From assembly GCA_963839865.1 (NCBI GenBank), contig CAWIWS010000008.1:60301-124300 (forward strand): a DNA stretch of 64,000 nt, given 5' to 3'. Under the pieces are notes generated by a model. It made no database searches. It was not told where the DNA came from and saw nothing but the letters and a program-made list of their open reading frames with translations. The DNA comes from an uncultured Acidobacteriota bacterium (GTDB lineage Bacteria; Acidobacteriota; Vicinamibacteria; Vicinamibacterales; UBA2999). Numbering within the stretch: position 1 is the stretch's first letter; each line of letters begins with the position of its first letter. This document shows, piece by piece, positions 2,316 to 55,337 of this stretch. A program made the position numbers and the translations under genes.

Positions 2316-2329
2316 GAAGGCGCACCTCC

Positions 2330-4668: not shown

Positions 4669-4717
4669 ATGCAGCCCGTGGGGCGGAATTACGATCAGGA
4701 ACTGCGGGACGCCGCCG

Positions 4718-5420: not shown

Positions 5421-5433
5421 GCGGGATGCGCGT

Positions 5434-6129: not shown

Positions 6130-6205
6130 TGGTGAGTCCCGGCGGCCCCGAAGGGGTGCCCTACGTTCGCGTGCCCGGCGTGTTGCGCCCAGAGGTATTC
6201 CACCC

Positions 6206-24652: not shown

Positions 24653-24658
24653 CCGGAC
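24604..24658. repeat. Pair of short palindromic hairpin units, GTCCGGCTTTAGCCGG(g/A)C, 37 nt apart
   Basis: 24604-24620 gtccggctttagccggg (imperfect). 24641-24658 gtccggctttagccggac (perfect 8-bp stem, 2-nt loop). The same unit (loop TC instead of TT) recurs twice at 57589-57635. Confidence 0.85.
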
Positions 24659-24665
24659 CATCCAT

Positions 24666-25475: not shown

Positions 25476-26266
25476 CCGACACGCCGCCCGAGACGCCGTT
25501 CCGCCCCAGCCTCTCGATGCTCGGCTGGGCGCTCAACGAGGAAGAAAACGTCACGGAGTACGTCCGCCGCGCGCAAGCCTTCCTCGCCAGCGTGTCGGAC
25601 GACTACGAGCTGATCCTAATCGACGACGGGAGCACCGATCGGACGTGGGCGATCATGATTGAGCTGGCCGCGAACCGGCCCTGGCTGACGCCGCTCAAGA
25701 ACGAACGCAACCGCGGCCCCGGGTACTGCTACCGTCGCGGCATCGGCGCCGCCACGAAGGACTACTTCATGGCGCAGACGGTGGACTGGGCGTACGACAT
25801 CGACGCCTTCAAGCCGTTCTTCGGCGAGCTGCGGCGGCACGACATCCTCCAGGGCGTGCGCCCGGGCGAGTTCGACCTGGGCACGATCCGGCGGCGCTCC
25901 GACAGCCTCTACAAGGGCATCGTGTCGCTGACCAACTACGCGCTGATCCGCATCCTGTTCCAGTTGCCCTTCGACGATTTCCAGAACGTGACGATTTGCC
26001 CGACCCGGCTCGCGCAGCCGCTGCGCCTCGAGTCCGAAGGGTCGTTCACGAACCCCGAAGTGATGATGAAGTTGTACTGGGGCGGGGCGTCGTTCCTGCA
26101 GGTGCCCGTGTTGTTCCAGAAGCGCGGCCGCGGCAAGGGCACGGGCACGCGCGCCGGGGCGATCGCCCGGTCGATCGGCGACATCCTCTCCAGTTGGTTC
26201 CGCTGGGTCGTGCTGGGCCGGTATGCGAACCGGCGCCACGGCACCGTGCGGTCGCGATATCCATGA
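25472..26266 (+). CDS. GT2-family glycosyltransferase (short, 264 aa)
   Basis: ATG 25472 overlaps the upstream stop. Motifs: LSMLGWALNEEENV, YELILIDDGSTDRT, N.G.G, Q.VDW..D. Confidence 0.75.
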   Translation: MTDTPPETPFRPSLSMLGWALNEEENVTEYVRRAQAFLASVSDDYELILIDDGSTDRTWAIMIELAANRPWLTPLKNERNRGPGYCYRRGIGAATKDYFMAQTVDWAYDIDAFKPFFGELRRHDILQGVRPGEFDLGTIRRRSDSLYKGIVSLTNYALIRILFQLPFDDFQNVTICPTRLAQPLRLESEGSFTNPEVMMKLYWGGASFLQVPVLFQKRGRGKGTGTRAGAIARSIGDILSSWFRWVVLGRYANRRHGTVRSRYP

Positions 26267-27809
26267 GCGCGCCACGGCGGTGACGGCCCGCCTTTCACAA
26301 TGGGTCCGGTACGGACTGCTGTGGCACCGGCCGGTCGCCTTTCGATGGTCGGTGGCCGCCACGGCGGTGTTGCTCGCGGCGTCGCTCGCGACCTCCCGAG
26401 CGGCGTGGTCGATGGATGGCGCCTCACTCTCCGACGGCCACGCCATCGTCTCGCTGGACCTCGCGACGGCCCGCGCGTTCTGCGGGGCCGGATCGTCGTT
26501 TTCGCGAACCGTCCGGATCCCGATGGATCTCGGCGCGCGGATGGAACGACGGCACGTGCCGCTCCGTGCCTTGATCGCGGAGAAAGCCGGATCGCTCGAA
26601 GCGTACTGCCGGTCGATCGACCAGCCGTTCGTGAATAGCGAGAACTCGCTGATGCTCGTGGAGGCCGCGATCCTCTCCCTGAATCCGAACCTTTCCCTCT
26701 CACAGCTAGGGCAGGTCCTGCACCTGATCAAGATCGCCTGCCTCGCGGCGTTCGTGCTGTTACTGATGGATCTGGGGAGCAGCCTGGTCCTCGGCCTCGC
26801 GACCTTGCTGTGCGGCCTGATGCTGCTGCAGTCGATGCCGGACCACGTGTACTCGAACTACCCGTTCTTCTTCGCGCTCGTGCTCGTGTCGTTGGCGCTG
26901 CACGGGTTCGCGATCAAGTACCGGTGGACGCGCGGGCCCGTGGGCCTCGTGGCGTACGGCGTCGTGGCCGGCGTGCTGTCCGCCTTCGTCGCGAACATGC
27001 GCTCCAGCTACCTCCCGGTGGTTGCGCTCTTCTTCGCGTGTGCGCTCGTCGAAGAGCTCCGCGCCCGGGGGCGCGTCATCGCCTGGAGCGGGCGGGCGCT
27101 GCGGGCGGTGGCGCTCGCGACCTGTTTCATCGCGGGTTTCGTGGCGTTCCAGCAGGGCCTCATCACGAGTCGCCTGCCAGAGGAGGGCCGCTTCAACGCG
27201 GCGCATCCTTTCGGGCACCCGCTGGTGCTCGCGCTCGGCGTGCCGGAGAACGACTTCAGCCGGGCCCAGGGCATCCGCTGGGCGGACGAAGTTGGGCCGC
27301 GGATCGCGGACCGCGTGGACCCCGGCGTGCCGTTCCTCGGGCCGCGTTACAACGCGGCGCTGCTGCGCTACTACACGTCCCTCTGGCGGTCGCACACCCG
27401 CGAGATGATCGGCGTCTATTACCTGAAGTTCTCGGTGTCGGGCGCGGACATGCTGCGCGTGTTGCGCGGGTCGCCCGGTCTGGTGGGCCTGGGGGTCAGC
27501 GTGCTACTGGCGCCGCTTGGCTTGCTGCCGTCTGGTGTGTGGCTGCTCGGCCTTTACGTTGCGATCACCCTCGGCGCCTTCGCGTTCTATTACCGGCGCG
27601 ACGAGCCGGCGGCGCTTTCGCTGGCGCTGCTCAGCCTGGCGGCGTGCCTCATGCAGGTCGAGTCGGGGCTCATCTTCTCGGTGTTCGTGAAGCAGTACCA
27701 CAACTACTCGGCTTTCTACGCGCTGTTCCTGTCACTGCTCGGCGTGCAGGCGGCGGGCAATGCGGTGTGGGCCTGGCTGGGCCCGCGGGGAGCGGCTATT
27801 GGCAGCTAG
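26223..27809 (+). CDS. Polytopic membrane protein, unknown function (about 10 or more predicted helices)
   Basis: Long ORF with many hydrophobic segments (LIKIACLAAFVLLLMDLGSSLVLGLATLLCGLMLL, etc.). Start uncertain: ATG 26223 overlaps the GT2 by 44 nt, while GTG 26280 is 14 nt past its stop. Confidence 0.6.
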   Translation: MRTGATAPCGRDIHERATAVTARLSQWVRYGLLWHRPVAFRWSVAATAVLLAASLATSRAAWSMDGASLSDGHAIVSLDLATARAFCGAGSSFSRTVRIPMDLGARMERRHVPLRALIAEKAGSLEAYCRSIDQPFVNSENSLMLVEAAILSLNPNLSLSQLGQVLHLIKIACLAAFVLLLMDLGSSLVLGLATLLCGLMLLQSMPDHVYSNYPFFFALVLVSLALHGFAIKYRWTRGPVGLVAYGVVAGVLSAFVANMRSSYLPVVALFFACALVEELRARGRVIAWSGRALRAVALATCFIAGFVAFQQGLITSRLPEEGRFNAAHPFGHPLVLALGVPENDFSRAQGIRWADEVGPRIADRVDPGVPFLGPRYNAALLRYYTSLWRSHTREMIGVYYLKFSVSGADMLRVLRGSPGLVGLGVSVLLAPLGLLPSGVWLLGLYVAITLGAFAFYYRRDEPAALSLALLSLAACLMQVESGLIFSVFVKQYHNYSAFYALFLSLLGVQAAGNAVWAWLGPRGAAIGS

Positions 27810-29319
27810 CCAGGATGCTCGCCTTGGTGACGAGCGGGTAGTCGCCGCGCGGGAACGCGGGATGCGCGTCGAGCGGGTGCTGCATCGGACGCGGCAGGCG
27901 CCCGGCCGCGACTTCCTGGTCGATCCAGCGGACGATCCACTGGAAGTAGTACCACGATTGCAGCCGGTTGCCGGCCGGCGTCATGTGCACCATGTCGAGG
28001 AACAGCTCGGGGTCGAGCGGCAGGGCCGCTGCTTTGTCGATGAACGGCAGCTCGTGGCGCGCGGCGTAGTTCCGGAACACGTGGTTCTGGAAGTCCATCA
28101 GCCGCCGGTTCTGGGCGTAGGTGACCGGGAACGTCTGATCGTTGATGGCCTTGAACAGCGTCTCGTCCCGCGGCAGCACGAGCTTGAGGCCGTCGTGCAC
28201 CATGGCGACTTCCGAGCTGAGCGCGAGCGTCCCGCCCGTGGCCGTGACCGCCGCGCGCATGGTGTCGAAGTTGGTCATGACGTCGTGCAGGCCCATCGGG
28301 AGCGGCCGTTGCGTCACGTCGGGATCGGACTCGTTCACGTCAGGTGGCCACTGGATCGGGTACGACGGCTTGGCGGGCTCGACGCCTTCTCTTCGCGTGT
28401 CGACGACCACCCTGATGCGCCGCGCCACCGCGGAGTAGCGCTCGGCGGCCCACTGCGGACCCCGGCCGCCGAAGTCCGGCGGCACCGGCGGCAAACCTTC
28501 CTTAGGCAGCTTCAACAGCAGGCCGGGCCGGTAGTCGTTGGCGCCGTCGAAGATGACCAGGTCGGGCTCGAGCGGCATGAGCTCCTGGACGACAGCGGCA
28601 GCCACCGACGACGAGTCAACGCCCGTGCGCGCGATGTTGAGGACTTCGACCTTGAACGGATAGCCGCGCGCCTTGACCCACAGGTTCAGCCATTCCCCGA
28701 TGTACTCGATGTGCGAAAAAGGAAGGTTGTAGCCGTCAATCGTCATCGACGATCCGGCGAACGCCACGCGGATGGTCTGCGGCGGCTTGTTGAGCGTGAC
28801 GTCCGGCCCGCGCCATCCGAAGCGGTTGGTCGGGAACCATCCGGGCGGGCTCATGCTCGACAGGTGACGATAGATGGGGAACCCGTTCTGCGGCGGGGGC
28901 TCGAATGTGTAAAAATCGTCAAGGATCCCCAGCGACCCGAATCGCAGTCCTCCACAGAGTTCGAGTTTCAGGTAGGCCGGATTCCAGGCGAAGAATGCCC
29001 CAAGGGGATCGGTGGCCTTGTAGCGCTCGGCGCGCGCGGCGATCGCGGGTGTCATCGGGATCGGCTGGTGCGGCGGCGGATCCTGGGGATACCACGTGGG
29101 GTCAACGCCGGTCGCGAGCGCGATCGTGTCGAAGTACCGGGCGTCGGCGTTGTCGCGTGACGTGCGCGTGACCAGCCGCGGTCGCGCCGGCGCGGCCGCG
29201 AGGCTGATGTGGAAAAGTGAGTATCCGTCGATCCAGCGGACCACCGCTTCACCGAGGATGACGAGCAGGAGGACGAGCACCGCTGCCACCGTGGCGCCCA
29301 GGAAATGCAGCCGATTCAA
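27796..29319 (-). CDS. Membrane-anchored SGNH/GDSL-type hydrolase or acyltransferase-like protein (the only minus-strand gene)
   Basis: 507 aa. N-terminal TM (LGATVAAVLVLLLVILG). SGNH-like blocks: VAFAGSSMT (I), DLVIFDGANDY (III), DMVHMT (V). Its 3' end overlaps the convergent gene by 14 nt. Confidence 0.65.
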   Translation of the reverse strand: MNRLHFLGATVAAVLVLLLVILGEAVVRWIDGYSLFHISLAAAPARPRLVTRTSRDNADARYFDTIALATGVDPTWYPQDPPPHQPIPMTPAIAARAERYKATDPLGAFFAWNPAYLKLELCGGLRFGSLGILDDFYTFEPPPQNGFPIYRHLSSMSPPGWFPTNRFGWRGPDVTLNKPPQTIRVAFAGSSMTIDGYNLPFSHIEYIGEWLNLWVKARGYPFKVEVLNIARTGVDSSSVAAAVVQELMPLEPDLVIFDGANDYRPGLLLKLPKEGLPPVPPDFGGRGPQWAAERYSAVARRIRVVVDTRREGVEPAKPSYPIQWPPDVNESDPDVTQRPLPMGLHDVMTNFDTMRAAVTATGGTLALSSEVAMVHDGLKLVLPRDETLFKAINDQTFPVTYAQNRRLMDFQNHVFRNYAARHELPFIDKAAALPLDPELFLDMVHMTPAGNRLQSWYYFQWIVRWIDQEVAAGRLPRPMQHPLDAHPAFPRGDYPLVTKASILASCQ

Positions 29320-29376
29320 AGTGGGATCGACTATAGCAGGGCCATCCGCGAGAACCCAAGCCGCCGTCGAGAATCA
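29320..29376. promoter_or_regulatory. Divergent intergenic region, presumed to hold promoters for 27796-29319 (-) and 29377-33580... (+)
   Basis: This is the only divergent junction in the window. It is 57 nt, visibly less GC-rich (tcaaagtgggatcgactatagcagggcc...gagaatca), and contains a TATAGC -10-like hexamer. No -35/-10 pair can be assigned confidently. Confidence 0.4.
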
Positions 29377-30351
29377 ATGAGTTCCAACACGAAATCCACG
29401 AACCCGCTATTTTCCGTGATCCTGATGTCGGTCTCCCTCGTGCTGGCCTTCGGCCTCGGAGAGCTGGCGCTGCGCGTCAAGAACAGCTCGATGAAGACCT
29501 ACGACATCGAGATGTGGCGATATGCCAAGGACCTGAAGGCGCAGAGCAGCGACCCCGCGCTCGATTTCGATCACGTGAAGTCCAAGTCGGCCTTGCTGCA
29601 GAGCGTGACGATCCGCCTCAACGAGTGGGGCCTGCGCGGAGGTCCCGTCGAGCCGCTGCCGCCCGGCGGGCGCCGCATCCTCTTCCTCGGCGGTTCGATC
29701 GCGCTCGGTTGGGGCGTCCCGGAAGAAGAGACGGTGGAGGCGCGCCTCGAGCAGAAGCTGAAGGCGGCCGGCCAGCCGGTGCAGGTCCTGAACGGCGGAG
29801 TGGGCAATTACAACACGCAGCGCTACGTGTCCCGGTTCTTCAAGGAACTCTCGGGCCTCGAACCCACGGACATCGTCGTGCACTACTTCCTCCGGGACGC
29901 CGAGGAGCTGCCGCCGGGCGGCGGCAACGCGATCCTTCGCAACAGCCAGCTGGGCGTCACGCTGTGGATTGCCTATCACCGGCTCTTCGACCGCGCGGGC
30001 GAGCAATCCCTGGTCGATCACTATCGCGCCGTCTACCGGCCCGATGCGCCCGGGTTCGTCGTGATGCAGGCGAGGCTCAAGGAATTGGCCGAGTACGCGC
30101 GGGCCCATCACATCCGGCTCTACCTGGCGATGACGCCAGACGTGCACAACCTGATCGACTACAAGTTCGGGTTCGTGCACGACGCCATGCGCCAGATCGC
30201 CGAGCGCGAGGGCTACACCTACGTCGACCTGCTGCCCGGCATGCTCGGCCACCCGCCCGAGGCGATGTTCGCGATGCCTGGCGATCCGCACCCGAACGCC
30301 CTCGGCCACCAGTTGATGGCCGACGCCATTCTGCCCGTGTTGACCCAGTAG
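29377..30351 (+). CDS. Membrane-anchored SGNH/GDSL-type protein (AlgJ/AlgX/PatB-like candidate O-acyltransferase partner of the MBOAT)
   Basis: ATG 29377 is chosen because ORF-track start 29305 would overlap the divergent gene. N-terminal TM (LFSVILMSVSLVLAFGLG). Blocks: ILFLGGSIALG (I), NGGVGNYN (II), PGDPHPN..GH (V-like). Confidence 0.65.
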   Translation: MSSNTKSTNPLFSVILMSVSLVLAFGLGELALRVKNSSMKTYDIEMWRYAKDLKAQSSDPALDFDHVKSKSALLQSVTIRLNEWGLRGGPVEPLPPGGRRILFLGGSIALGWGVPEEETVEARLEQKLKAAGQPVQVLNGGVGNYNTQRYVSRFFKELSGLEPTDIVVHYFLRDAEELPPGGGNAILRNSQLGVTLWIAYHRLFDRAGEQSLVDHYRAVYRPDAPGFVVMQARLKELAEYARAHHIRLYLAMTPDVHNLIDYKFGFVHDAMRQIAEREGYTYVDLLPGMLGHPPEAMFAMPGDPHPNALGHQLMADAILPVLTQ

Positions 30352-30355
30352 CGCC

Positions 30356-31753
30356 GTGCTCTTCAGCTCGCCCGCGTTCTTCGTCTTCTTCCTGGTGTAC
30401 TTCTGCCTGCACCTGGTGGTGCCGCTGCGGCACCGCGTCTACCTGATCATCGCGGGCAGCGCGATCTTCTACGCGTGGTGGCGCATCGAGTACGCCTGGC
30501 TGCCGTTTGCCCTGATGGCCACGGCCTACGGCGGCGTCCTATGGATGGAGCAGGCGCCCGACGCGGTCCGGCGGAAGCGGCGCGCCACCGTCGCCGTCGT
30601 CATCCTCTTCCTGCCGCTGCTCGTCTTCAAGTACACGAACTTCGTCTACCGCGACGTGCTCGGCCCGATCGTCGGGTGGGACGGCCGCCTGCTCGACCTG
30701 CCGCTGCCGCTCGGCGTGTCCTTCGTCACCTTCACGCTTACCGCCTTCATCGTCGACATCTACAAGCGGAAGTATCGCGAGGTGCCGGGCGCGGCGACGG
30801 TTCTGGCCTACGTGCTCTTCTTCCCGCATCTGATCGCGGGACCGATCCTGCGGCCGCACGAACTGGTCCCGCAGCTCGAACATCCGGCGCGGACCCGCCT
30901 GCGCCGGGTTGCCGTGCCCATCGCCATCTTCACCCTGGGCATCGTCAAGAAACTGGTGTTCGCCGACACGATCGCGGGCGCGGTGGACACGGTCTACGCA
31001 CAGGCCGGCGGCACCGTCAGCGGCCCGTCCGCGTTGCTGGCGATTTACGGCTTCTCCGTCCAGATCTACTGCGACTTCAGCGGCTACACCGACATGGCGA
31101 TTGGCCTCGCGCTGCTCCTCGGCGTCCGGCTCCCCAACAATTTCCTGCGGCCGTACACCGCCACCTCGATCATCGACTTCTGGCGGAGGTGGCACATCAC
31201 CCTGTCGTCCTGGCTCCGCGACTACCTCTATATCCCGCTCGGCGGCAACCGCCACGGGCGGGCGCAGGAGATGCGCAACGTCATCATCACGATGGCGCTC
31301 GGCGGCCTGTGGCACGGGGCGAGCTGGACCTTCGTGGTGTGGGGCCTGTTTCACGGCACCGGCGTCGCCGTGACGCATGCGCTGCAACGCGCGTTCGGCG
31401 CGGCGCGCGCGCTGCCCGCCTGGCTGGGGGTGCTCATCACCTTCCACTTCGTCACCCTCGGCTGGGTGTTCTTCCGCGCGCCGAGCCTGCGCAAGGCGTT
31501 CGAGATGCTGGCGGCGGCCTTCGGGGGCGGGGGATGGACGGACGCCTCCGCGTTTGTGTCCGCGAACCTCTTCCTCGTGGCGCTGGTGCTGATCTTCGCG
31601 GCGTTCCACCGGTACGACGACCATCGCCGTGTCCGCGCGATGGTGCGCTACCTGCGGCCGGAAATCCTGTGGCCGGTCGTCCTGTTCCTGTGGGTGCTGG
31701 CGATCACCGTGAGCCAGGGCAATTCCGCCAAGTTCATCTACTTCGATTTCTGA
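30356..31753 (+). CDS. MBOAT-family membrane O-acyltransferase (AlgI/DltB/PatA-like)
   Basis: 465 aa, polytopic. Diagnostic motifs FWRRWHITLSSWLRDYLYIPLGGNR and LGGLWHGASW (the conserved His). Confidence 0.9.
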   Translation: MLFSSPAFFVFFLVYFCLHLVVPLRHRVYLIIAGSAIFYAWWRIEYAWLPFALMATAYGGVLWMEQAPDAVRRKRRATVAVVILFLPLLVFKYTNFVYRDVLGPIVGWDGRLLDLPLPLGVSFVTFTLTAFIVDIYKRKYREVPGAATVLAYVLFFPHLIAGPILRPHELVPQLEHPARTRLRRVAVPIAIFTLGIVKKLVFADTIAGAVDTVYAQAGGTVSGPSALLAIYGFSVQIYCDFSGYTDMAIGLALLLGVRLPNNFLRPYTATSIIDFWRRWHITLSSWLRDYLYIPLGGNRHGRAQEMRNVIITMALGGLWHGASWTFVVWGLFHGTGVAVTHALQRAFGAARALPAWLGVLITFHFVTLGWVFFRAPSLRKAFEMLAAAFGGGGWTDASAFVSANLFLVALVLIFAAFHRYDDHRRVRAMVRYLRPEILWPVVLFLWVLAITVSQGNSAKFIYFDF

Positions 31754-31754
31754 G

Positions 31755-32594
31755 ATGACCCGCTGCGACGTGTGTGACGCCGACGGCACGGGGGTCGGCT
31801 ACGCCGGACTCCGCCGCTGCGGCGCATGCTCGCACGTGTGGGCGGACCTCTCCCTCGACCCCGAGGCGATTCAACGGCTGTACCAGCGCAGCTACTTCTT
31901 CGGCGACGAGTACGGCAATTACCTCGAGGACCGGCGGATCATCGAGAAGAACTTCGCGGGCCGCCTCGCCACGCTGCGGCGGTTCCTGACCGCCTCCCAC
32001 CGGCGGCTCTTCGAGGTTGGGTGTGCCTACGGGTTCTTCCTGAATGCCGCGCGGAGCCTGTTCGAGTCGGTCCGGGGCATCGATGTCTCTGAGGACGCGG
32101 TGCGCTACGCCACCCGGGAACTGGGCCTCGACGTGTCGTGCGGCGACCTCCTGGCGGCGGATTTCTCGGGACAGACCTTCGACGTCGTGTGCATGTGGGA
32201 CACCATCGAGCACCTGGCGGCGCCGCGGCGGTACATCGAGACCGTGGCGGCTCACATGCCGCCCGGCGCGCTCATCGCCGTCACCACCGGCGATATCGGC
32301 AGCCTGAACGCCCGCGTGCAGAAGGGCAGGTGGCGCCTGATCCATCCGCCGACACACCTGCACTACTTCACGCGCCGATCCCTCTCGGCCCTCCTCGAGC
32401 GGTGTGGCTTTCGCGTGATCCACGTCGAGTATTGCGGCGTCTATCGAAGCCTGGGCGGCATGCTCCACAACCTGGTCGCGCTGCGGGGCCGCTGGCCGCG
32501 CCTGGGTGCGTGGCTGCAGCGCGCTGCGCCGTCCGGCCTTGATGTGTACCTGAACCTGCACGACATCATGTACATTGTCGCGGAGCGCCGATGA
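31755..32594 (+). CDS. Class I SAM-dependent methyltransferase with N-terminal CxxC...CxxC zinc-ribbon-like motif
   Basis: CDVCDADG...CGACSHVW; motif I LFEVGCAYGFF; DVVCMWDTIEHL; ALIAVTTGD. Confidence 0.75.
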   Translation: MTRCDVCDADGTGVGYAGLRRCGACSHVWADLSLDPEAIQRLYQRSYFFGDEYGNYLEDRRIIEKNFAGRLATLRRFLTASHRRLFEVGCAYGFFLNAARSLFESVRGIDVSEDAVRYATRELGLDVSCGDLLAADFSGQTFDVVCMWDTIEHLAAPRRYIETVAAHMPPGALIAVTTGDIGSLNARVQKGRWRLIHPPTHLHYFTRRSLSALLERCGFRVIHVEYCGVYRSLGGMLHNLVALRGRWPRLGAWLQRAAPSGLDVYLNLHDIMYIVAERR

Positions 32595-33580
32595 CACACC
32601 TCCTGATCGTGACGCCGGCGTTCAACGAGGCGGCCGTGCTTCCCGATTTCGTGCAGGCGGTCCTCGCGCTGCGCCGGCAGTTGTCCGCCACCACCGACGT
32701 CCGCCTCCTCGTGGTGGACGACGGATCGATCGACGACACGGCCGGCGTGCTGCGCCGGGCGGCGGACGCGCACCCCGACGTGGTCGCCTACCTTTCGCTT
32801 ACCGCCAACGCCGGCCACCAGGCGGCGCTGATCGCGGGCCTCTGCCATGCGGGGGCCTGGCCCGATGCGATCGTGACGATGGACGCGGATCTCGAGCACC
32901 CGATGGCCGTGGTGGGCGAGCTCGTTGAGAAATGGCGGGAGACCGGTGCGATCATCGTCCACGCCATTCGACGGCCGACCCGCGAGCTGCCACTGCTCAA
33001 GCGCCTGCCCTCCGCCATGTTCTATCGCGTCACGGCGGCGCTCACCGGCTTGAGCCTCTCGACCGGCCAGGCCGACTTCCGCCTCTGGGACGCGCAGGTA
33101 CTGCGCAGCGTGGCGGATTACCTGCCGCACATCGGCTCGCTCCGCGTGTTTGCCGCGTGGCTGCCGGGGCGCAAGTCGGCGGTGACGTACGAGCAGCACG
33201 TTCGCAACGACCGCACATCGCGGTTCACCTTCAGCAAGAACTACGAGCTGGCCGCCATCAGCATCGTCCGCTTCTCGCACGTGCCGCTGCAGATCATCAG
33301 CGGCCTCGGGTTGATTGGATTGATCTTCTCGTTCAGCTACGGCGGCTTCATCGCATGGGAGACGTTGCAGGGCAACACCGTCCCCGGCTGGTCGAGCACC
33401 GTGCTGACGGTGATGACGATGGGGTGCCTGCAGCTGCTGGCGTTCGGCGTGCTTGCCAGCTACTTCCAGCGGCTGGTGTTTGCCAGGGACCTGCCGCCAT
33501 GGGTGATCCGCACGTCGCGCCTGGCGCCGTTGGCGCCGCCGGATGCGCGCGAGCCCGCACGGATGGATGGCCTAAAATAG
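32591..33580 (+). CDS. GT2 polyprenol-phosphate glycosyltransferase (GtrB/ArnC/DPM1 type), intact
   Basis: ATG 32591 overlaps the upstream stop. Motifs: VTPAFNEA, LLVVDDGSIDDT, N.GHQAAL.AG, MDADLEHP, FRLWD. Two C-terminal TM helices (IISGLGLIGLIFSF.., VLTVMTMGCLQLLAFGVLASYF). Confidence 0.8.
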   Translation: MTHLLIVTPAFNEAAVLPDFVQAVLALRRQLSATTDVRLLVVDDGSIDDTAGVLRRAADAHPDVVAYLSLTANAGHQAALIAGLCHAGAWPDAIVTMDADLEHPMAVVGELVEKWRETGAIIVHAIRRPTRELPLLKRLPSAMFYRVTAALTGLSLSTGQADFRLWDAQVLRSVADYLPHIGSLRVFAAWLPGRKSAVTYEQHVRNDRTSRFTFSKNYELAAISIVRFSHVPLQIISGLGLIGLIFSFSYGGFIAWETLQGNTVPGWSSTVLTVMTMGCLQLLAFGVLASYFQRLVFARDLPPWVIRTSRLAPLAPPDAREPARMDGLK

Positions 33581-33596
33581 GGAGCTTCCCCTCACC

Positions 33597-35606
33597 GTGA
33601 CGACGCCACTCCGGACAATCTTTCGTGAGGCCCTCGTCGTTGCTGCGTTGTTTGCCGTGTCGCTCGTTGCTTCGCAGTCGGCCATGCATGGCTTCCGTGC
33701 GGCCGGGGCACAGCCCTTCTTCTATCAATCGAACTTCGAGCCGGCCGTGATGATGGCCTGCGGGCGGGGATTCGTGACGTCTCCCTCGGCCCCGCCGCAG
33801 CTGGCCGAATTCCTCAATGTCTCGCGGAACGACTTCGATTGCGCCCTCCTGCCGGCCGGGATGACCGAACTGCCGCTGACGACGCCGGCGAACGCGAACT
33901 GGTACTACCTGTACGGCGCGGCCGCGGCGGTCTGGAAGATGACGGGCGTGTCGTGGACGGCGCTGGATGGGCTCGTGTCCGCGATGAGCGCCGTCGGCGC
34001 CGTGTTGCTCTACGGGTTGTTCCGGCTCGTGACCAATACACCGGTGTCCGCCGCGCTTTCGCTGCTGCTGACGCTCTCGCCCGCCAACCTGACGCACCTC
34101 TTGTCGCTGCGCGACTACAGCAAGGCGCCGTTCGTGCTCGGCGCGATCCTGATTCTCGGCGCGCTGGTCATGCGGCCCATGCGTCGCGCCGGCACGCTCG
34201 CGCTGGCGGCGACGTACGGGGTCGTTGTGGGGATCGGCTATGGGTTTCGCGGCGACCTCGCCGTGATGGTGCCGTTCGGCGCCATCGTGGTGTTGCTGTT
34301 CCTGCCCGGCGCGATCCGCGCTCATGCCTGGCGCAACGCCCTCGCGACCTCCGTGCTCCTCCTCGCGTTCGTCGTCTCCGCGTGGCCCGTGATCAGCGGC
34401 CTCCAGCTCGGCGGGTGCCAGTACCACTTCTCGCTGCTCGGCCTCACCGATCCCCTGACGAGCGAGTTGCGGCTCACGCCGTCGATTTACCGCTTCGGGG
34501 AACACCTGTCGGACACGTTCGCCGACCTCAAGACCGGCGATTACGCCGCGCGCGTGCTCGGCGCGCCGGTGCCGAGGCTGTGCTCTGCCGAGTACGACAC
34601 GGCTTCCGGCCAACTGTATTTCGATCTCGCCCGGACGTTTCCCGCCGACTTCGTCGTGCGGGCGTATGCGTCGGTCCTCATGATCCTGCGCGTCGGCCTG
34701 GCGATTCCCGAAGCCATGCTTCCGATGGTGCCGTTCGCGGACAGCCAGGCGGCGGTAGGGGCCTATCGGGCGCTGCATGCGATCACGTCGCCGCTGTCGG
34801 CCCTCGGGGTGCTGGTCACCGTCGCGGCGATCGCCGGTGCCTGGGCCTCCTCGATTCGGCTGGGCCTGGCAATGACGGCTTTCGTGCTGTTTCTCACCGG
34901 TTATCCAGCGATCCGGTTCGACGAGCGTCATTGGTTTCACTTGCGGTTCATTCCCTGGTGGGCGGCCGCCCTCGTGGGCACGGAACTGCTGCGCCTCGGG
35001 ACACGCGCCTGGGAACGCGCGCGCCTGGTGCGCGCCGCGGTCGCGATCGGCGGGCTGCTGCTGGCGTTGGCCGCGTCGCTCGGGGCCCTGCGACTCGTGC
35101 AGGCGGGACGGGTGGAGGCGCTCGTGACCCAATATCTCCATGCCCCGACCGAGGCCGTGCCGGCGCAGGTGGTGGACGGTGCCACGTTGCGCGTGGACTG
35201 GCAGCCTCGCGACGCCGGCACGCCACCCGCGCATCGCGCGTCGGACCTCCTGGTGGTCACGCTCGAGGGGCCGGCCTGTGCGGGGACCGGGGACCTCGGC
35301 CTGCGCGTCACCTACGACGCCGACGTGCCCAGCCACGACATGTCCACGTCGTTCACGGTGGCGCGCCCAACGGCCGGGCCGACGAAGCTCTTCGTGCCGG
35401 TGTTCTGGCAGGGCGTCGGCGATCACGACGACCTCCGCTTCTCCGGACTCCAGGTCGCCGGCGCGTCGAGCGCCTGCGTTGGACAGGTGGCCCGGGTGAC
35501 GAGCGGCCGCCAAGTGCCGCTGTGGGTCGAACTCCAGGTCCCGGCGGACTGGGCGAGCTATTCCTTGTACGAATCCATGCGACCACCACGACTGCTCAAC
35601 CGGTGA
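33597..35606 (+). CDS. Large polytopic membrane protein, family copy P4 (intact, 669 aa)
   Basis: GGAG lies 12 nt upstream of GTG 33597. Motifs: FEPAVMMACGRGF, NDFDCALLP, NLTHLLSLRDYSKAPF, GYPAIRFDERHWFHLRFIPWW, Cys pair PACAG...SACVGQVARV. Confidence 0.8.
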   Translation: MTTPLRTIFREALVVAALFAVSLVASQSAMHGFRAAGAQPFFYQSNFEPAVMMACGRGFVTSPSAPPQLAEFLNVSRNDFDCALLPAGMTELPLTTPANANWYYLYGAAAAVWKMTGVSWTALDGLVSAMSAVGAVLLYGLFRLVTNTPVSAALSLLLTLSPANLTHLLSLRDYSKAPFVLGAILILGALVMRPMRRAGTLALAATYGVVVGIGYGFRGDLAVMVPFGAIVVLLFLPGAIRAHAWRNALATSVLLLAFVVSAWPVISGLQLGGCQYHFSLLGLTDPLTSELRLTPSIYRFGEHLSDTFADLKTGDYAARVLGAPVPRLCSAEYDTASGQLYFDLARTFPADFVVRAYASVLMILRVGLAIPEAMLPMVPFADSQAAVGAYRALHAITSPLSALGVLVTVAAIAGAWASSIRLGLAMTAFVLFLTGYPAIRFDERHWFHLRFIPWWAAALVGTELLRLGTRAWERARLVRAAVAIGGLLLALAASLGALRLVQAGRVEALVTQYLHAPTEAVPAQVVDGATLRVDWQPRDAGTPPAHRASDLLVVTLEGPACAGTGDLGLRVTYDADVPSHDMSTSFTVARPTAGPTKLFVPVFWQGVGDHDDLRFSGLQVAGASSACVGQVARVTSGRQVPLWVELQVPADWASYSLYESMRPPRLLNR

Positions 35607-35622
35607 GCGGGAGAGACTGACC

Positions 35623-36711
35623 TTGAAGACGATCGTTCACGTCGTCGGCGCGCGGCCCAATTACATGAAGATTGCGCCGCTCATGGACGCGCTCCGCGGC
35701 GCGCCCGGCATCCGGCAGATCCTCGTCAACACCGGGCAGCACTACGACGAGGCGATGTCCAAGTCGTTCCTGCGCGAGCTGTCGCTGCCCGCGCCGGATC
35801 GCAACCTGGAGGTCGGCTCGGCGAGCCACGCCGTGCAGACGGCCAAGGTGATGATCGGCTTCGAGCAGGTCTGCCTCGAGGAGAAGCCGGATCTCGTCGT
35901 CGTTGCCGGTGACGTGAACTCGACGATGGCCGCGACGCTGGTGGCGGCGAAGCTGATGATCCCCGTGGCCCACCTCGAAGCGGGCCTGCGCAGCTTCGAT
36001 CGCGGCATGCCGGAGGAGGTCAACCGCATCGTGACCGACTGCCTCGCGGACCTGCTGCTCACGCCGTCCACGGACGGGGACGAGAACCTGATGAAGGAAG
36101 GCGTGCCGCGCGAGAAGATCCACTTCGTCGGCAACATCATGATCGACACGCTGATGCGCCACCTGCCGATGGCGACGCTCGCGCGCATCCAGGACCGCGT
36201 GCCCGTGACCGACAAGGGCTACGGCGTGCTGACGCTGCACCGCCCGTCGAACGTGGACGACCCCGTCATCCTGCGCCGCATCCTCGAGGCCATCGCTCAC
36301 GTTGCGCGCCAGATGCCGGTGGTGTTCCCCGTGCACCCCCGCACCCGCCAGAGGCTCGCGGCCTTCGGCGTGGATGACCTGCTGGCCAACGTGATCCTCA
36401 CCGAGCCGATGGGCTACATCGACTTCCTGAGCCTGACGTCGCACGCGCGGATCATCCTGAGCGACTCCGGCGGCCTCCAGGAGGAGTCGACGGCGCTCGG
36501 CATCCCGTGCCTGACGCTGCGTGAGAATACCGAGCGCCCCGTCACGATCACCCACGGCACGAATCGACTCGTGGGCACGCAGACGGCGAACATCATCGCG
36601 GGCTTCGACGAGGCGATGGCGTCCGAGCATGCGCCGCAGCGGCGACCGCCCCTGTGGGACGGACACACCGCGGAGCGCGTGGCGGCGGTGCTGCAGAAGT
36701 TCCTGGCCTGA
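35623..36711 (+). CDS. wecB: UDP-N-acetylglucosamine 2-epimerase (non-hydrolysing)
   Basis: 362 aa. Motifs: VVGARPNYMKIAPL, NTGQHYD, GDVNST.A, HLEAGLRSFDR.MPEE.NR, SDSGG.QEE. GGGAGAG RBS lies 8 nt upstream of TTG 35623. Confidence 0.9.
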   Translation: MKTIVHVVGARPNYMKIAPLMDALRGAPGIRQILVNTGQHYDEAMSKSFLRELSLPAPDRNLEVGSASHAVQTAKVMIGFEQVCLEEKPDLVVVAGDVNSTMAATLVAAKLMIPVAHLEAGLRSFDRGMPEEVNRIVTDCLADLLLTPSTDGDENLMKEGVPREKIHFVGNIMIDTLMRHLPMATLARIQDRVPVTDKGYGVLTLHRPSNVDDPVILRRILEAIAHVARQMPVVFPVHPRTRQRLAAFGVDDLLANVILTEPMGYIDFLSLTSHARIILSDSGGLQEESTALGIPCLTLRENTERPVTITHGTNRLVGTQTANIIAGFDEAMASEHAPQRRPPLWDGHTAERVAAVLQKFLA

Positions 36712-38806
36712 TGACCGTCTCGACATTCGTCGCGCGCGCCAAGAAGGCGCTGCGCATGCCCCCACGGGTGCTGGCGGCGCGCCTCCGTGAGTCGTTGCGC
36801 GCGCATTCACGCCGACCCTGGTCGCAGGTGTACCCGCGCGTGCTGCGGGACCAGGCGATCCTCGGCGAGAGCGGCGCCGCGACGTTCGACGCGTTGTGGG
36901 CGCGGCAGATGGCGCAGCCGTTCTTCCTGCAGCCCGCCGATCGCGATGCCTACGTCGCCGCGTTTCGCGCGCGGTACCCGGAGGAGGTCACCGCGGTCCT
37001 CGCCACCGCGGACGCGGCGATGCGGCACGAGTTCGACCTGCTCGGCTCCGGCGTCACTGCCCTCGGACCGAAGCTGCCGTGGCTGGACGACTTCAAGACC
37101 GGCCGTCGGTATCCGGTGCAGTACCTGCCGCGACATCCAGTACATGGAACTCGAGAAGCCCACGGACGTGAAGGTGCCGTGGGAACTGAGCCGGTGCCAG
37201 CACTTCACCGCGCTCGGCCAGGCGTACTGGCTGACCGGTGACGAACGGTACGCCGCCGAGTACCGCGCCGAGATTGAAGACTGGATTGCGACCAATCCCT
37301 TTGCCTACAGCGTGAACTGGGCCTGCGCGATGGACGTCGCCCTGCGCGCGATCAACTGGATTTGGGGTTTCTATTTCATGGCCGGTTCGGCGGCGTGCGC
37401 CGATCCCGCGTTCCGCCGCCGGCTCCTGCGGAGCCTCTTCCTCCACGGCGAGTTCGTGTTCCAACACCTCGAGAAGGGCGACGTCAACGGCAACCATTAC
37501 CTGAGCGACGGCGCGGGCCTCGTGTTCCTCGGGCTGTTCTTCAAGCACACGCCGCAGGGGCGCCGCTGGCTCGACACGGGCAGGGCGATTGTGGTCGACG
37601 AGATGCTCCTCCAGGTCTCGGAGGACGGCGTGGATTTCGAGCAGTCCACCTCCTATCAACGACTGGTCCTCGAGTTGTTTCAGACGTCATACCTGCTGCT
37701 GGAGAAGCACGGCGAGCGCGTGCCGGAGGCGCAGTCCGCGCGGCTCGCCCGCATGCTCGAGTTCGTGTGCGCGTACACGAAGCCGGACGGCCTCGCCCCG
37801 CTCATCGGAGACGCCGACGATGGCCGGGTGCAGAAGCTCGGGTCGCAGCGCCTCAACGACCATCGCTACCTGGTCTCGACAGGCGCCGTGCGCTTCGCGC
37901 GGGCGGATTTCAAGGCCGCGGCCGGCCGGTTCTGGGCCGAGTCCTTCTGGATGCTGGGGCCGGAGGGCGCCGCGTCCTTCGACGCGCTGGCGGACGGTCC
38001 CGCCGGCGTCCGGCTCGGTCGCCTTTCCAGCCGGCGGCTTCTACGTCCTCCGAAGCCCTTCGGCGCACGTCGTGATCGACTGCGGCGAGGTGGGAATGCG
38101 CGGGCGCGGCGGCCACGGACACAACGACATCACCAGCTTCGAGCTGTTCCTGAACGGCATGAACGTCGTCTCCGACTGCGGCGCCTACCTCTACACCGCT
38201 TCGCGCGAGTGGCGGAACCGGTTCCGCAGCACGGCGTTCCACAACGTGGCGCAGGTCGACGGGGAAGAGTTGAACCGGTTCATCGGCCCCGACGCGCTCT
38301 GGCAGTTGATGTACGACGCCCATCCCGTCGATCTCGAATGGAAAAGCGACGGATTCGGGGGATACTTTTGTGGAGGGCACGACGGCTACGCGCGGCTCGC
38401 GCCGCCCGTCGCCTCGGTCCGGGAGTTGTTCGTCGATCCCACCCGTCCGCGCGTCGCGTTGCGGGACCGCCTGTCGAGTGCGCGGCCCTCGAGCGGCACG
38501 ACGTGGCGGTTTCACTTCGATCCCGCGCTCGACGCGGACGCTGGTGGGGCCGGACTGCCGCCTCCGCGCGGTGGCCGCGAAGTCTGGCTGCTGGCGGCCG
38601 ATGAGGCCGACACGCGCGAGCGGCGGATCGAGCCCGGCTGGGTCTCGGCGGGCTATGGCGTGAGGATGGAAACGTCGGTGCTCGTGATCCCCGACAACCA
38701 GATGCCGGCGACGTTGGCGTGCGTGTTCGCGGACACGCGCCTCACGGCCGAAGAGCGCCGCGAGGTCACGGCACAACTTGATGCGCATCGTGCGCGCATC
38801 CACTGA
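36711..38806 (+). pseudogene. Heparinase II/III-like (alginate-lyase-type N-domain + Hepar_II_III C-domain) protein, copy 1; +1 breaks near 37128 and 38000
   Basis: ATG 36711 shares one nt with the upstream TGA. Three ORF-track pieces (36654-37241, 36787-38604, 37589-38806) join colinearly: ..HEFDLLGSG.., VPWELSRCQHFTALGQAYWLTGDERYA, NHYLSDG.GL, DGLAPLIGDADDG, AFPAGGFYVLRS, GHGHNDITSFEL, HN...VDG. No signal peptide is evident. Confidence 0.75.
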
Positions 38807-41484: not shown

Positions 41485-44229
41485 ATGGCCTCGTGCCTGT
41501 ATGTCGGGCCACGGCTCGACAGCTTCCGGCATCGTCAGCCGCGAGGGTCTGGAGGCGACGACGGAGCGTCACCGTCTCGAGATCCCGCCGGCGGTCATGA
41601 CCCCGGTCCGCGCGTCCGCTCGACGAATTGGCGCGCCTGCCGAACCTGGCCGGCGTCATCGTGGAGATGCACCAGGGCTGGCCCGGGCAGAACCACCTGC
41701 GGTTTGCCGCGGTCCGCGGCGAAGATGGGCCGTCGCGTCTGGTTCTACTGGCCCGCCGAGGATGCGATCGAGTGCATCGACGGCGAACAGCTGACCACGT
41801 ATTGGAACCTGTGGGTACTTCATGCTGGCGGTCCGCACGTGGCGCCGCGTGGCGCGCGTGGTGGCCCGTGCCTGGCGGGCGGTCACGTTGCCGTACCGGA
41901 TGGCCCGGGTCCTCGCCGTCCAGGCCAACGCGCCGGCGCCGGGCGCGCCCGCCGGGCAGGTGCCCACGGACGTGGCGGCCGAGCGTTCCCGCCGCGCGCT
42001 GGCGGAGCTGATGCCTGTCGCCGAGCCCGTGCCGATGGGCGAGGCCCCCTCGCAACCCGACGCGGCGCACCGCGTTCGCCGGTACCGGCGTCTACTTGCG
42101 CACGGACTTCTGGGCGCAGATCACCTCCGGCGGCAGCTACGGCCACACTTGCTACGTGGCGAAGGAACTGGCCGCCGTCACAGAACGGTTCACCTGCTTC
42201 ATGGGCAGCCGCTTCAGCCTGCTCGACGAGCTACGGCCTGCACCAGGTCGTGCTGCCGCGCCCATCGGAGACGAGCAGCGAGTCCGACCTCCTCGAGGCG
42301 CACTGGGCGTACTACCCGCAGCTGAAGCTGGCCTGCCGAGCGTTGAGGCCCGCCTACATCTACGAGCGCCTGTGCATGGGCAACTTCTGCGGGGCCGCCC
42401 TCAGCCATGAACTCGGCATTCCCTACATCGTTGAATACAACGGCTCCGAGATCTCGATGACTCGGAGCTTCGGCGGCGTGGCCCTCACGCACGAGGACGT
42501 CTTCATCGCCGCGGAGGACGCGGCGTTCAGGCAGGCGACGATGATCAGCGTCGTGTCGCAGGTGATGCAAGGACTCGCTCGTGGCGCGCGGCGTCGACGC
42601 GGCGAAGATCCTGGTGAACCCGAACGGCGCCGACCCCGACACCTACCGCCGATGGCACCGGCCGCGAAGGCGGCCCTGCGCGCCGAACTGGGTTTTGCCC
42701 CCGACGATCGGGTGGTCGGCTTCACCGGCACCTTCGGAGGATGGCACGGCATCGACGTGCTCGCCAAGGCCATCCCGACGATTTGCGCCGCGTCAGCCGC
42801 GCGTCATGTTCCTGCTCATCGGCGACGGCACGCACAAGCACTTCGTGGACGACGCCGTGGTCGAGCACGGGCTCGAGCGACGGGTGAAGAGCGTGGGCCG
42901 CGTGCCGCAAGCCGAAGGCGCGCGGTTGCTCGGCGCCTGCGACCTCTACGTGTCACCGCACAACAGCCACATGGTGGACAGCAAGTTCTTCGGCTCGCCG
43001 ACCAAGCTGTTCGAGTACATGGCGATGGGCGGCGGCATCGTCGGCAGCGACCTCGAGCAACTTGGCGAGGTGTTGTCGCCGGCGCTGCGGGTGTCCGATT
43101 TCCGCAAGGCCGACGTCGCCGTGGGCCCGGAGCGCGCCGTCCTTTGCACGCCGGGCGACGTGGACGAGTTTGCCGAGGCCGTCGTCGCGCTGGCCGAGCG
43201 CCCGAAGGTCGCGGAGACGATTGGGCGCAATGCGCGCCAGGCCGTGATCGATGAATTCTCGTGGCGCCGTCACGTCGGCCACGTCTGGCGGTTCCTCGAC
43301 GACGATCGGCCGGCGTTGGCGGCCCGGAACGAGCGCGCGCGCGAGCGCGCCGCACAGGCCCTGGCAGGAGTCGTCGTGGCGCCGGTGGTCGTGCCGGAGC
43401 GGCCTGGCCTGCGACCGCGTGGAGACCGGCGACGCCTACAAGGAAGAAGTCCAGGACCAGTGGAACAACAACCCGGTCGGCAGCCACTACGCCAAGGTGA
43501 CCAAGCCGCACACGCTCGAGTGGTACCACGAGATCGAGCGATACCGGTACGCGGAGTACGCGCCGTGGATGCTCGAGGTCATGGAGTTCCAGCGGCATGC
43601 GGGTCACGACGGTGCTGGAAATCGGCGGCGGCCTGGGCACCGACCTGAGCCAGTTCGCCCGCAACGGCGCGATGGTGACGGACGTGGACCTGTCGGCCGG
43701 TCACCTGGGGCACGCGAAGGAGAACTTCGAACTGCGCGGCCTCACCGGCCAGTTCGTGCACCACGACGCCGAGGATCTGCCGTTTCCCGACAACAGCTTC
43801 GACGTCGTCTACAGCAACGGCGTGATCCACCACACGCCGAACACCCAGCAGGTGGTCCGCGAGATCCGGCGCGTGCTGAAGCCCGGCGGCAAGGCGATCA
43901 TCATGCTGTACGCCGAGCATTCCTGGCACTACTGGTACCGCCTGGTCTGGGAACAAGGCGTCAAGCACGACATGCTGTCGACGTATTCGATCGGCGAGAT
44001 CATGTCGCGCCGCGTCGAGATCACCGAGAATGACGCGCGGCCGCTCGTGAAGGTATACACGGCGCGCCGGCTCCGGCGCATGTTCAAGGACTTCGCGTCA
44101 CACGCCTTCTACAAGCGCCAGTTGATCCGGTCGGAGTTGCCGGCAGGGCTGCGCTGGGTGCCCGTCGAGCCCGCGTCGAAACTCGTGGGGTGGAACATCA
44201 TCATCAAGGCGACCAAGCCCCGCGCATGA
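41485..44229 (+). pseudogene. Tri-partite fusion: novel N-domain + GT4-type glycosyltransferase + class I SAM methyltransferase, copy 1; about 11 frame breaks
   Basis: The reading is colinear with the better-preserved copy 2. Breaks are at about 41505, 41618, 41712, 41818, 42074, 42230, 42572, 42652 (-1), 42790, 43397 and 43612. Blocks: CLYV..TERHRLEI, RRVWFYWP, GVYLRTDFWAQITSGGSYGHTCYVAKELA, IVEYNGSEI, ILVNPNGADP, GTFGGWHGIDVL, FFGSPTKLFEYMAMGGGIVGSDL. The methyltransferase part has VLEIGGGLGTD, VYSNGVIHHTPN and LKPGGKAII. Confidence 0.7.
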
Positions 44230-55235: not shown

Positions 55236-55337
55236 TTCCAGCACCTGACCGCGAGCCATGATGCACTACGCTGTAAGGCACACCCACCCCCATGCTGACG
55301 CTCATCCCCAGATGCCCCAGTTGGTGACGACCTGACC

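Follow-up and report, generated by a model that had tools for sequence, protein, structure and literature searches.

GtrB-type glycosyltransferases and a GT-C-like membrane protein family as candidate periplasmic glycosylation modules in an Acidobacteriota polysaccharide locus

A 64,000-nt stretch of DNA from an uncultured Acidobacteriota bacterium (Vicinamibacterales, UBA2999; assembly GCA_963839865.1, contig CAWIWS010000008.1, positions 60,301 to 124,300; hereafter the window) carries genes of glycosyltransferase family 2 (GT2) that are repeatedly followed by genes for large membrane proteins, which raises the question of what such neighbours do together. The original prediction described three pairs of this kind and interpreted them as polyprenyl-phosphate-sugar synthases with partner glycosyltransferases of the GT-C type. 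The three GT2 genes (GT2a, GT2b and GT2c, in their order along the window) were found in place by their PF00535 matches, together with the membrane-protein genes downstream of them (Table 1). The latter encode members of one family, P0 to P4, and a 528-amino-acid (aa) protein, mem528. All-against-all BLAST revealed five family copies instead of the four initially counted, P0 being cut by the window edge. Adjacency thus recurs, but the pairing is not one to one, as two GtrB-type GT2s and one short GT2 serve five family copies and mem528; since these five include P3, which lacks an adjacent GT2, the pattern is modular rather than strictly pairwise. Because the window has a G+C content of 68%, genes were called by third-position G+C. 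Nearly all of them lie on the plus strand, and Pfam and NCBIfam matches define a single very large sugar-modification and polysaccharide locus. We consider it likely that the window holds several periplasmic glycosylation modules of a three-component type within this one large amino-sugar polysaccharide locus.

Types of the three GT2 proteins

PF00535 matches above the gathering score cover 7475-8266 in GT2a (1.3e-12) and 32591-33580 in GT2c (1.7e-20). GT2a had been taken for an intact gene, which it is not: its 931 nt hold no continuous open reading frame (ORF), 64 N-terminal codons lying in the frame of 7336 and the remainder in the frame of 7475, and comparison with three orthologues, each intact at 930 nt, shows exactly one surplus base at about 7527. 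The reconstructed GT2a (309 aa) and GT2c align with Synechocystis GtrB (5EKP) at 1.9e-54 (residues 7-307 to chain residues 28-328) and 8e-36 (residues 4-296 to chain residues 28-315), respectively. Both alignments span the two C-terminal transmembrane (TM) helices, and two hydrophobic segments are present in each protein. The second-best structure match was ArnC, at 1.7e-40 over the full length of GT2a and at 7e-18 for GT2c. Among NCBIfam models PgfS ranked first (1e-65 for GT2a, 1e-39 for GT2c) and ArnC second for both. With 221.9 and 136.7 bits against the PgfS equivalog cutoff of 500, and 155.6 and 71.9 bits against the ArnC cutoff of 529, GT2a and GT2c fall far below these thresholds and are therefore relatives, not orthologues, of the two enzymes.

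The key residues of GtrB are D94xD96, R122, D157 and R200 (PMC4728340). Equivalents of D94, D96, R122, D157 and R200 are all kept in GT2c, and those of D96, R122, D157 and R200 in GT2a, where Ser replaces D94. Judged by sequence, GT2a and GT2c are GtrB/ArnC-type polyprenyl-phosphate glycosyltransferases with a presumed lipid donor. The expectation that the GT2s would group with polyprenol-phosphate transferases and not with processive GT2s was borne out for these two by the full-length GtrB match and the TM hairpin. It does not extend to all three as one type, as sequence cannot place the subtype of GT2b.

GT2b contains no hydrophobic segment, and a full-length likeness to GtrB or ArnC including C-terminal TM helices was looked for and not found. 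The protein aligns to solved structures by its N-terminal GT-A part only (100-140 aa), with an archaeal DPMS as the best match (6e-8), closely followed by chondroitin synthase (3e-7), GtrB (2e-6) and ArnC (3e-6). It is strongly conserved across metagenomes, at 70-86% identity. GT2b is linked to GT-C-like partners no less firmly than the GtrB-type genes, because GT2b-type genes lie directly 5′ of family members in four other genomes (loci L004, L032, L034 and L035); in L034 such a gene fills the GT2 slot in the order GT2, family member, WecB. We regard GT2b as probably a TM-less analogue of a polyprenyl-phosphate-sugar synthase.

Fold and conserved residues of the membrane proteins

Neither Pfam nor NCBIfam has a model that matches P1 to P4. 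When 1.84 billion representatives were scanned in full with HMMER, with clusters formed at 50% identity, 1999 clusters were assigned to the family at E<=1e-3 and 1223 at E<=1e-30, and its members fall into size classes of about 650-730 and about 810-870 aa. The homologues, all named "hypothetical", come from Acidobacteriota/Vicinamibacterales and other metagenome-assembled genomes (MAGs). Literature on WbqC and on newly described GT-C families yielded nothing on the P0-P4 family. The only recurrent Pfam match among relatives was PMT_2 (PF13231), an ArnT/PMT-type GT-C family, obtained for 6 of 40 and 7 of 62 members (13/102 together). Four of these matches were checked; their scores of 27.8-29.1 bits exceed the gathering threshold of 26.1, and they cover model positions 11-157 of 160 and protein residues ~95-260. 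As read, P1 and P2 each consist of a membrane-domain ORF followed by a C-domain ORF. We considered a natural two-gene split and dropped it, since the orthologues in loci L010 and L012 are single ORFs that align across one frame change each, and the join needs exactly one such change.

An AlphaFold model of P4, built with 40 homologues, reached a predicted local distance difference test score (pLDDT) of 92.9 and a predicted TM-score (pTM) of 0.91. It has ~13 long helices. The first loop spans residues 36-96 and contains two short helices, residues 263-366 form a helical insert, and residues 518-669 make up a C-terminal beta-sandwich, likened by Foldseek to TNF-like jelly rolls including the BC2L-C lectin domain. 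In the Foldseek comparison with the PDB, EmbC was the best match (5.5e-5), followed by STT3, AglB, ArnT, ALG3, PglB, AftA/B, Pmt4 and DPY19; all top membrane-protein matches are GT-C enzymes, with probabilities of ~0.9-1.0 and modest TM-scores of 0.25-0.36. For mem528 (pLDDT 86.4, ~13 long helices) the top 13 PDB matches are likewise all GT-C. No Wzy, WaaL or SEDS structure occurs among the top matches of either protein. The predicted model supports a GT-C-like fold for P4, and by predicted fold the GT-C analogy is supported for P4 and mem528 alike. The proposal of a GT-C enzyme as the partner of the synthase is in this way supported by the fold of both proteins and by PMT_2 matches in a minority of family members.

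The 40 homologues of mem528 are all unnamed and about 505 aa long, so its true start may be the GTG near 26280. It has no NCBIfam match, and its hhalign alignment with E. coli ArnT was not significant (E 0.29). The original prediction had called mem528 unrelated to the family, which holds at the BLAST level only, where no similarity to P0-P4 was found. Profile-profile comparison gave a weak match (E 1.7e-3, probability 15%) that is collinear over 270 columns and pairs RDYSKAPF of one with VYSNYPF of the other. This match and the shared GT-C fold class speak against a wholly unrelated protein, and mem528 is probably a distant analogue or relative of the family.

Across 76 diverse family members the invariant or near-invariant polar residues are R143, R172-D173-Y174-x-K176, R218-x-D220, H277, D306, D351, R444-H445 and Q502; H448 is also listed with R444 and H445 among the invariant periplasm-side residues, and two Cys pairs are conserved. 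Topology was predicted from charge and Cys counts per loop in the same 76 members. The N-terminus and residues 193-199, 236-246, 418-420 and 466-480 are predicted to be cytoplasmic, and the first loop, residues 216-221, 262-348 and 440-450 and the C-domain periplasmic, an arrangement in which residues 148-169 would have to be re-entrant. All conserved charged residues would then face the periplasm, which would suit a site that binds the lipid phosphate and transfers the sugar. Known GT-C enzymes carry a catalytic Asp or Glu in the first periplasmic loop. The invariant acids of the family (D173, D220, D306 and D351) lie outside this loop, and because the canonical first-loop acid is not conserved we term the family GT-C-like and not a proven member of the GT-C class.

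The unconserved acid, the weak Foldseek scores and weak O-ag_pol_Wzy matches in 2/62 members (0.004) would also fit a family that is not a glycosyltransferase, such as a Wzy-like polymerase, a ligase or a transporter, in which case the GT2s would be ordinary membrane-anchored glycosyltransferases and their adjacency a result of locus crowding. We find this very unlikely, given that the alignment of the GT2s to GtrB runs through the TM hairpin, with functional residues kept, and that Wzy, WaaL and SEDS structures do not appear among the top Foldseek matches. In addition, the linkage extends across phyla, GT2 subtype and family clade co-vary (GT2c with the P4 clade and WecB, GT2a with the P1/P2 clade), and a polymerase or ligase would not normally occur in several copies per locus.

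Gene neighbourhoods and locus content

To compare neighbourhoods, one genome per species was used and the window proteins were mapped onto 30 loci from 21 genomes, which belong to Acidobacteriota, Gemmatimonadaceae, a Myxococcales MAG, Desulfobulbaceae, Gammaproteobacteria, Legionellales, Magnetococcales, Chloroflexia and the isolate Polaromonas sp. AET17H-212. The 20-kb loci L032, L034 and L035, on three intact metagenomic contigs, were compared in addition; L033 was left out as too fragmented. Linkage to GT2 genes was counted within 10 kb around family members. Altogether the 30 loci contain 65 copies of the family. Tandem arrays are frequent, with four members in L029, three each in L012 and L016 and more in L026. 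In 19-20 of the 30 loci a GtrB-like GT2 was present, mostly directly upstream on the same strand, and the loci without one are mainly short contigs. With 17/21 genomes having such a gene, the predicted linkage of the family to GT2 genes in other genomes was confirmed. The adjacency goes beyond chance, since it is found again in further genomes and in other phyla.

The order within each module is conserved as well. Between the end of GT2c (33580) and the GTG start of P4 (33597) lies the 16-nt gap noted before, which contains a GGGAG motif; GT2c orthologues always precede P4-clade members, with WecB next. WecB adjoins a family member in 15/30 loci, and the order GT2, GT-C-like protein, epimerase, GT-C-like protein recurs in L015, L016, L021 and L030. 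The predicted succession of GT2a, a methyltransferase and the P1/P2 pair also proved correct. GT2a orthologues come after WbqC-DegT and before P1/P2-clade members, with or without the methyltransferase, which holds the same position in L010, L011, L012, L018, L020 and L022; the order WbqC-DegT-GT2a-family member is kept in Acidobacteriota, Desulfobulbaceae, Gammaproteobacteria and Chloroflexia loci. P3, which no GT2 directly adjoins, heads a block with the M20 deacylase, the AAC(3)-like acetyltransferase and GT2b that is kept in L006, L008, L009, L032 and L034.

In nearly all sampled genomes the family genes sit in polysaccharide loci, together with GT4, heparinase II/III-like, MBOAT/SGNH acylation and AsnB amidotransferase genes. 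This setting bears on the nature of the acceptor, which could, with an otherwise unchanged mechanism, be a protein (PMT/Pgf-like O-glycosylation) or the lipid A/lipopolysaccharide core (ArnT-like). Such acceptors would agree with PMT_2, an ArnT/PMT-type model, being the only recurrent Pfam match, with the likeness of the GT2a module to arnB-arnC-arnA (DegT, ArnC-like GT2 and an ArnA-N-like formyltransferase at 1.7e-58), with the order GT2, family member, epimerase, family member, which mirrors pgfS-pgfM1-pgfE-pgfM2 (PMC12041528), and with the family member of L028 that directly follows a 1698-aa ORF. We nevertheless hold them quite unlikely in view of the polysaccharide setting, of the several paralogues per locus, which suit several acceptor sites on one glycan, and of the lack of similarity to ArnT detectable by hhalign. 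The L028 arrangement itself (2249-9426, Magnetococcales MAG), with no GT2 found within 7-10 kb, may reflect a different donor supply or a protein substrate.

The original prediction saw no GtrA-like small flippase, and a search for small multi-TM ORFs confirmed this within the window. Neither a GtrA Pfam match nor a dedicated small flippase gene was found in the 20-kb loci L032, L034 and L035. In the Polaromonas locus L024, one gene codes for a 124-aa protein of the EamA family (36.4 bits, threshold 28.2) that matches E. coli ArnE; this gene shares an operon with a GtrB-like GT2 and WbqC and is divergent to the family gene. With the ArnE-like protein, the GtrB-like GT2 and a family member, all three components are therefore present there. 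L024 also encodes a Wzx-type protein and a WbpA/B/D/E/I-like gene set for a diacetamido-mannuronic-type sugar. Directly upstream of its WbqC and GtrB-like GT2 genes lies a gene for a 655-aa protein (6668-8635, minus strand) with ~12 TM segments, which has no Pfam match and no BLAST similarity to the family and may be another GT-C-like partner. In the window, a 316-aa protein with ~8 TM segments (15629-16579), kept after the formyltransferase in L010 and L012 and matching no Pfam or NCBIfam model, could be a flippase or transporter for the GT2a module.

The tandem arrangement raises a further possibility, namely that the arrays form an extracytoplasmic assembly line that polymerises or branches a glycan from undecaprenyl-phosphate (Und-P) monosaccharides, as mycobacterial Emb/Aft/Mpt enzymes do, instead of decorating side chains. 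Loci with up to 4-6 tandem paralogues (five plus mem528 in the window), EmbC as the best Foldseek match (5.5e-5) with AftA/AftB also appearing, and a window in which Pfam recognised no Wzx, Wzy or ABC exporter would all be consistent with it. Emb-type enzymes have carbohydrate-binding domains, which the C-terminal beta-sandwich recalls. At least four or five cytoplasmic GT4 enzymes are encoded in the locus, however, and the Polaromonas locus has its Wzx-type flippase, both of which fit a conventional repeat-unit pathway followed by decoration; moreover, the window membrane proteins at 15629-16579, 51631-53382 and 53303-55261 could be the exporter or polymerase. On balance, an assembly line of this kind seems unlikely to us.

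Table 1. Coordinates of the genes discussed in the text, with the evidence for each.
Feature	Positions	Strand	Evidence and remarks
P0, C-terminal ~383 aa of a family member, truncated by window start	1-1158	+	blastp to P3 residues 423-827 (1e-32) and P4 residues 439-662; no Pfam match
WbqC-like gene	5434-6129	+	Pfam WbqC 1e-66; upstream of DegT gene
DegT aminotransferase	6206-7339	+	Pfam DegT 4e-94; stop overlaps GT2a start
GT2a, GtrB/ArnC-type polyprenyl-phosphate glycosyltransferase (by sequence)	7336-8266	+	+1 frameshift ~7527
S-adenosylmethionine (SAM) methyltransferase between GT2a and P1	8266-9108	+	Pfam Methyltransf_23/11/25
P1, family member	9105-11485	+	blastp within family; frameshift ~10380-10420
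P2, family member, tandem neighbour of P1 (62% identity)	11495-13518	+	blastp; frameshift ~12685-12700
P3, long-form family member, 832 aa	20828-23326	+	blastp; no Pfam or NCBIfam match
ArgE/DapE-family M20 deacylase, between P3 and GT2b	23333-24652	+	Pfam, NCBIfam, synteny
AAC(3)-like N-acetyltransferase, between P3 and GT2b	24624-25475	+	Pfam, NCBIfam, synteny
GT2b, 264-aa GT2 without TM segment	25472-26266 (PF00535 ORF 25355/25472-26266)	+	PF00535 7.6e-16, above gathering score
mem528, polytopic, predicted GT-C-like fold	26223-27809	+	AlphaFold model, Foldseek; directly 3′ of GT2b
GT2c, intact GtrB-type polyprenyl-phosphate glycosyltransferase (by sequence), two C-terminal TM helices	32591-33580	+	PF00535, GtrB match
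P4, family member, 669 aa; predicted GT-C-like membrane domain, periplasmic helical insert, C-terminal beta-sandwich	33597-35606	+	AlphaFold model, Foldseek
Non-hydrolysing UDP-GlcNAc 2-epimerase (WecB type), directly 3′ of P4	35623-36711	+	Pfam Epimerase_2 5.5e-106

Counted with those of Table 1, the genes of the window comprise two DegT aminotransferases, two WbqC-like genes, a GNAT gene and the ArnA-N-like formyltransferase (1.7e-58). Further genes encode a radical SAM/SPASM protein, methyltransferases, an NDP-sugar 4,6-dehydratase, AsnB-like amidotransferases, an MBOAT and two SGNH proteins, heparinase II/III-like proteins, several GT4s and the WecB-type 2-epimerase, whose TIGR00236 score of 336.7 bits exceeds the cutoff of 210. 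For two membrane proteins (51631-53382 and 54204-55235) no NCBIfam match was obtained. The radical SAM/SPASM gene (13541-14692) directly follows the P1/P2 array, a position kept in L010, L012 and L013, where the formyltransferase comes next. Two tandem beta-propeller proteins of ~320 aa each (2752-4668), with only weak GH130/GH32N-like matches, are kept across phyla between GNAT and WbqC, in the module upstream of GT2a (L010, L011, L012, L018, L020, L022 and L024). An O-acylation block (27796-31753) of an SGNH gene on the minus strand, another SGNH gene and a DltB-like MBOAT gene separates mem528 from the methyltransferase-GT2c-P4 module; it is present in L002 and is not at the equivalent position in L032. 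Heparinase II/III-like genes (36654-38806 vs 46887-48914, 34-41% identity) and GT4 plus methyltransferase genes (41485-44229 vs 44190-47071, 56-75% identity) are duplicated, one copy being frameshifted in each case.

At 2752-3715, 17158-19028, 36654-38806, 41485-44229, 53303-55261 and 56891-58215, genes are broken up by changes of frame, each into two or three ORFs. These genes, which have no bearing on the GT2 pairing, include a beta-propeller gene, GT4/methyltransferase genes, and an AsnB and a heparinase-like gene that are each in three pieces. The density of roughly one frameshift per 5 kb suggests an error-prone, possibly long-read, assembly and not targeted pseudogenisation. As many unrelated window genes are frameshifted too, we favour assembly indel errors as the simplest, though not a proven, explanation.

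A model of the modules and its relation to known systems

We propose the following model. On the cytoplasmic face, GT2a and GT2c, and probably GT2b as a TM-less analogue, would transfer a sugar from a nucleotide sugar to undecaprenyl phosphate. The nucleotide sugar would be supplied by WbqC, DegT, the methyltransferase and the formyltransferase for GT2a, by the WecB 2-epimerase for GT2c, and by the M20 deacylase and the N-acetyltransferase for GT2b. The lipid-linked monosaccharide would then be flipped by a protein encoded outside the window, and in the periplasm a GT-C-like enzyme (candidates P0-P4 and mem528) would move the sugar to an exported acceptor, most likely the polysaccharide of this locus. 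The C-terminal beta-sandwich probably binds the acceptor glycan, and tandem paralogues probably draw on a common donor and act at different acceptor sites. What the analysis shows is the subtype of GT2a and GT2c, the GT-C-like fold predicted for P4 and for mem528, and the conserved gene linkage; from these we infer the lipid donor, flipping, transferase activity, sugar identities and acceptor. A lipid-phosphate-linked donor for the family is suggested by genomic linkage to GtrB-type synthases, and, judging from the neighbouring genes, GT2c-P4-WecB would handle a sugar of the ManNAc type and the GT2a module an amino sugar with a methyl or formyl group. Several pairs in one locus would mean multiple decorations of one polymer. 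The synthase/GT-C interpretation of the original prediction is thus supported, holding for two modules and being plausible for the third.

Several results count against this model. The Foldseek E-values of P4 and mem528 are weak (5.5e-5 to ~0.1) and their TM-scores low (0.25-0.39), and the first periplasmic loop (positions 36-96) has no invariant Asp or Glu in 40 or 76 members, its best column reaching 78% D/E. A family profile gave no match to PDB sequences at E<=10, no sequence similarity to Emb or Aft was found, the hhalign alignment of the family with E. coli ArnT was not significant (E 0.22), and P4 itself has no Pfam match. GT2b is not separable from ordinary GT2s by sequence. Two Magnetococcales loci are clear exceptions to the linkage, with no GT2 within 5-10 kb, and the window contains no small ORF with three or more hydrophobic segments and so no GtrA-like gene. 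Finally, GT2a, P1 and P2 are frameshifted as read, and the module could be inactive if the shifts are real.

Tentatively, and with considerable doubt, one could go further and see in P0-P4 a new GT-C family (a new CAZy family) whose tandem arrays form an extracytoplasmic line that both assembles and branches amino-sugar glycans, in Acidobacteriota as well as other Gram-negative phyla, analogous to Emb/Aft. The line would be fed by dedicated Und-P-monosaccharide synthases, possibly with an Und-P-ManNAc-type donor, and a catalytic site of D173/K176, R218/D220, D306 and D351 would replace the first-loop acid. Surface glycans have hardly been studied in Acidobacteriota and their relatives, which are abundant soil bacteria. 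The glycosylation modules proposed here would give a concrete, testable role to a large family annotated only as "hypothetical protein" and offer an annotation rule for such loci: a GtrB-type or short GT2, then a family member, then WecB. The family may also widen the range of known GT-C active sites, the usual first-loop acid not being conserved, and the cultured carrier Polaromonas sp. AET17H-212 provides an experimental handle.

The three-component logic has been described for the Gtr, Arn and GT136 systems (PMC11127046). As in GtrA/GtrB/GtrC O-antigen glucosylation of Shigella and Salmonella phages, a GtrB-type GT2 with two C-terminal TM helices adjoins a polytopic GT-C-like protein; unlike there, the window has no GtrA gene, its transferases belong to another, unnamed family with a C-terminal beta-sandwich and several tandem copies, and its sugars are probably amino sugars, not glucose. 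With the Arn pathway of lipid A aminoarabinose (ArnB-C-A-D-T-E-F) it shares a DegT gene immediately 5′ of the gene for an ArnC-like GT2 and a nearby gene for an ArnA-N-like formyltransferase, as well as, in the Polaromonas locus, an ArnE-like small EamA protein. It differs in that the family has no significant alignment with ArnT, ArnD is missing, WbqC, methyltransferase and radical SAM genes are added, and the setting is a polysaccharide locus.

The Pgf operon encodes two GT-C enzymes alongside an epimerase and a GtrB-type GT2 (PMC12041528). The Streptococcus mutans system (PgfS-PgfM1-PgfE-PgfM2) resembles ours in that PgfS is the best NCBIfam match of GT2a and GT2c and in the gene order recurring in four of the loci (L015, L016, L021 and L030). 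The GT2 scores are, however, far under the PgfS cutoff (222 and 137 vs 500 bits), the epimerase is a WecB-type 2-epimerase and not a 4-epimerase, the partners are not of the YfhO family, and the organisms are Gram-negative with the genes in polysaccharide loci. In the mycobacterial system, Ppm1/PpgS likewise feed several GT-C paralogues (Emb, Aft, PimE, Rv3779) with polyprenyl-phosphate monosaccharides, and EmbC is the top structural match of P4. PpgS, a short polyprenyl-phosphate-GalNAc synthase with a 226-position NCBIfam model, offers a precedent for a TM-less enzyme of the GT2b type. GT2b nevertheless does not match the PpgS model, sequence similarity to Emb/Aft was not found, and the phyla and glycans differ.

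The GT136 pentofuranose system of Citrobacter youngae is a recent GT-C family with a C-terminal beta-rich domain, found, as here, via locus context and an AlphaFold model, and it acts in the periplasm after polymerisation (PMC11127046). By its description it is set apart, its donor coming from a UbiA-type phosphoribose synthase and not from a GtrB-type GT2, and its flippase being of the MATE type. The window system lies outside the Gtr, Arn, Pgf, mycobacterial and GT136 systems, with synthases below equivalog cutoffs, an unnamed transferase family lacking the first-loop acid, a TM-less GT2 and tandem arrays. Its logic is already known; the GT-C-like membrane family is new and previously undescribed.

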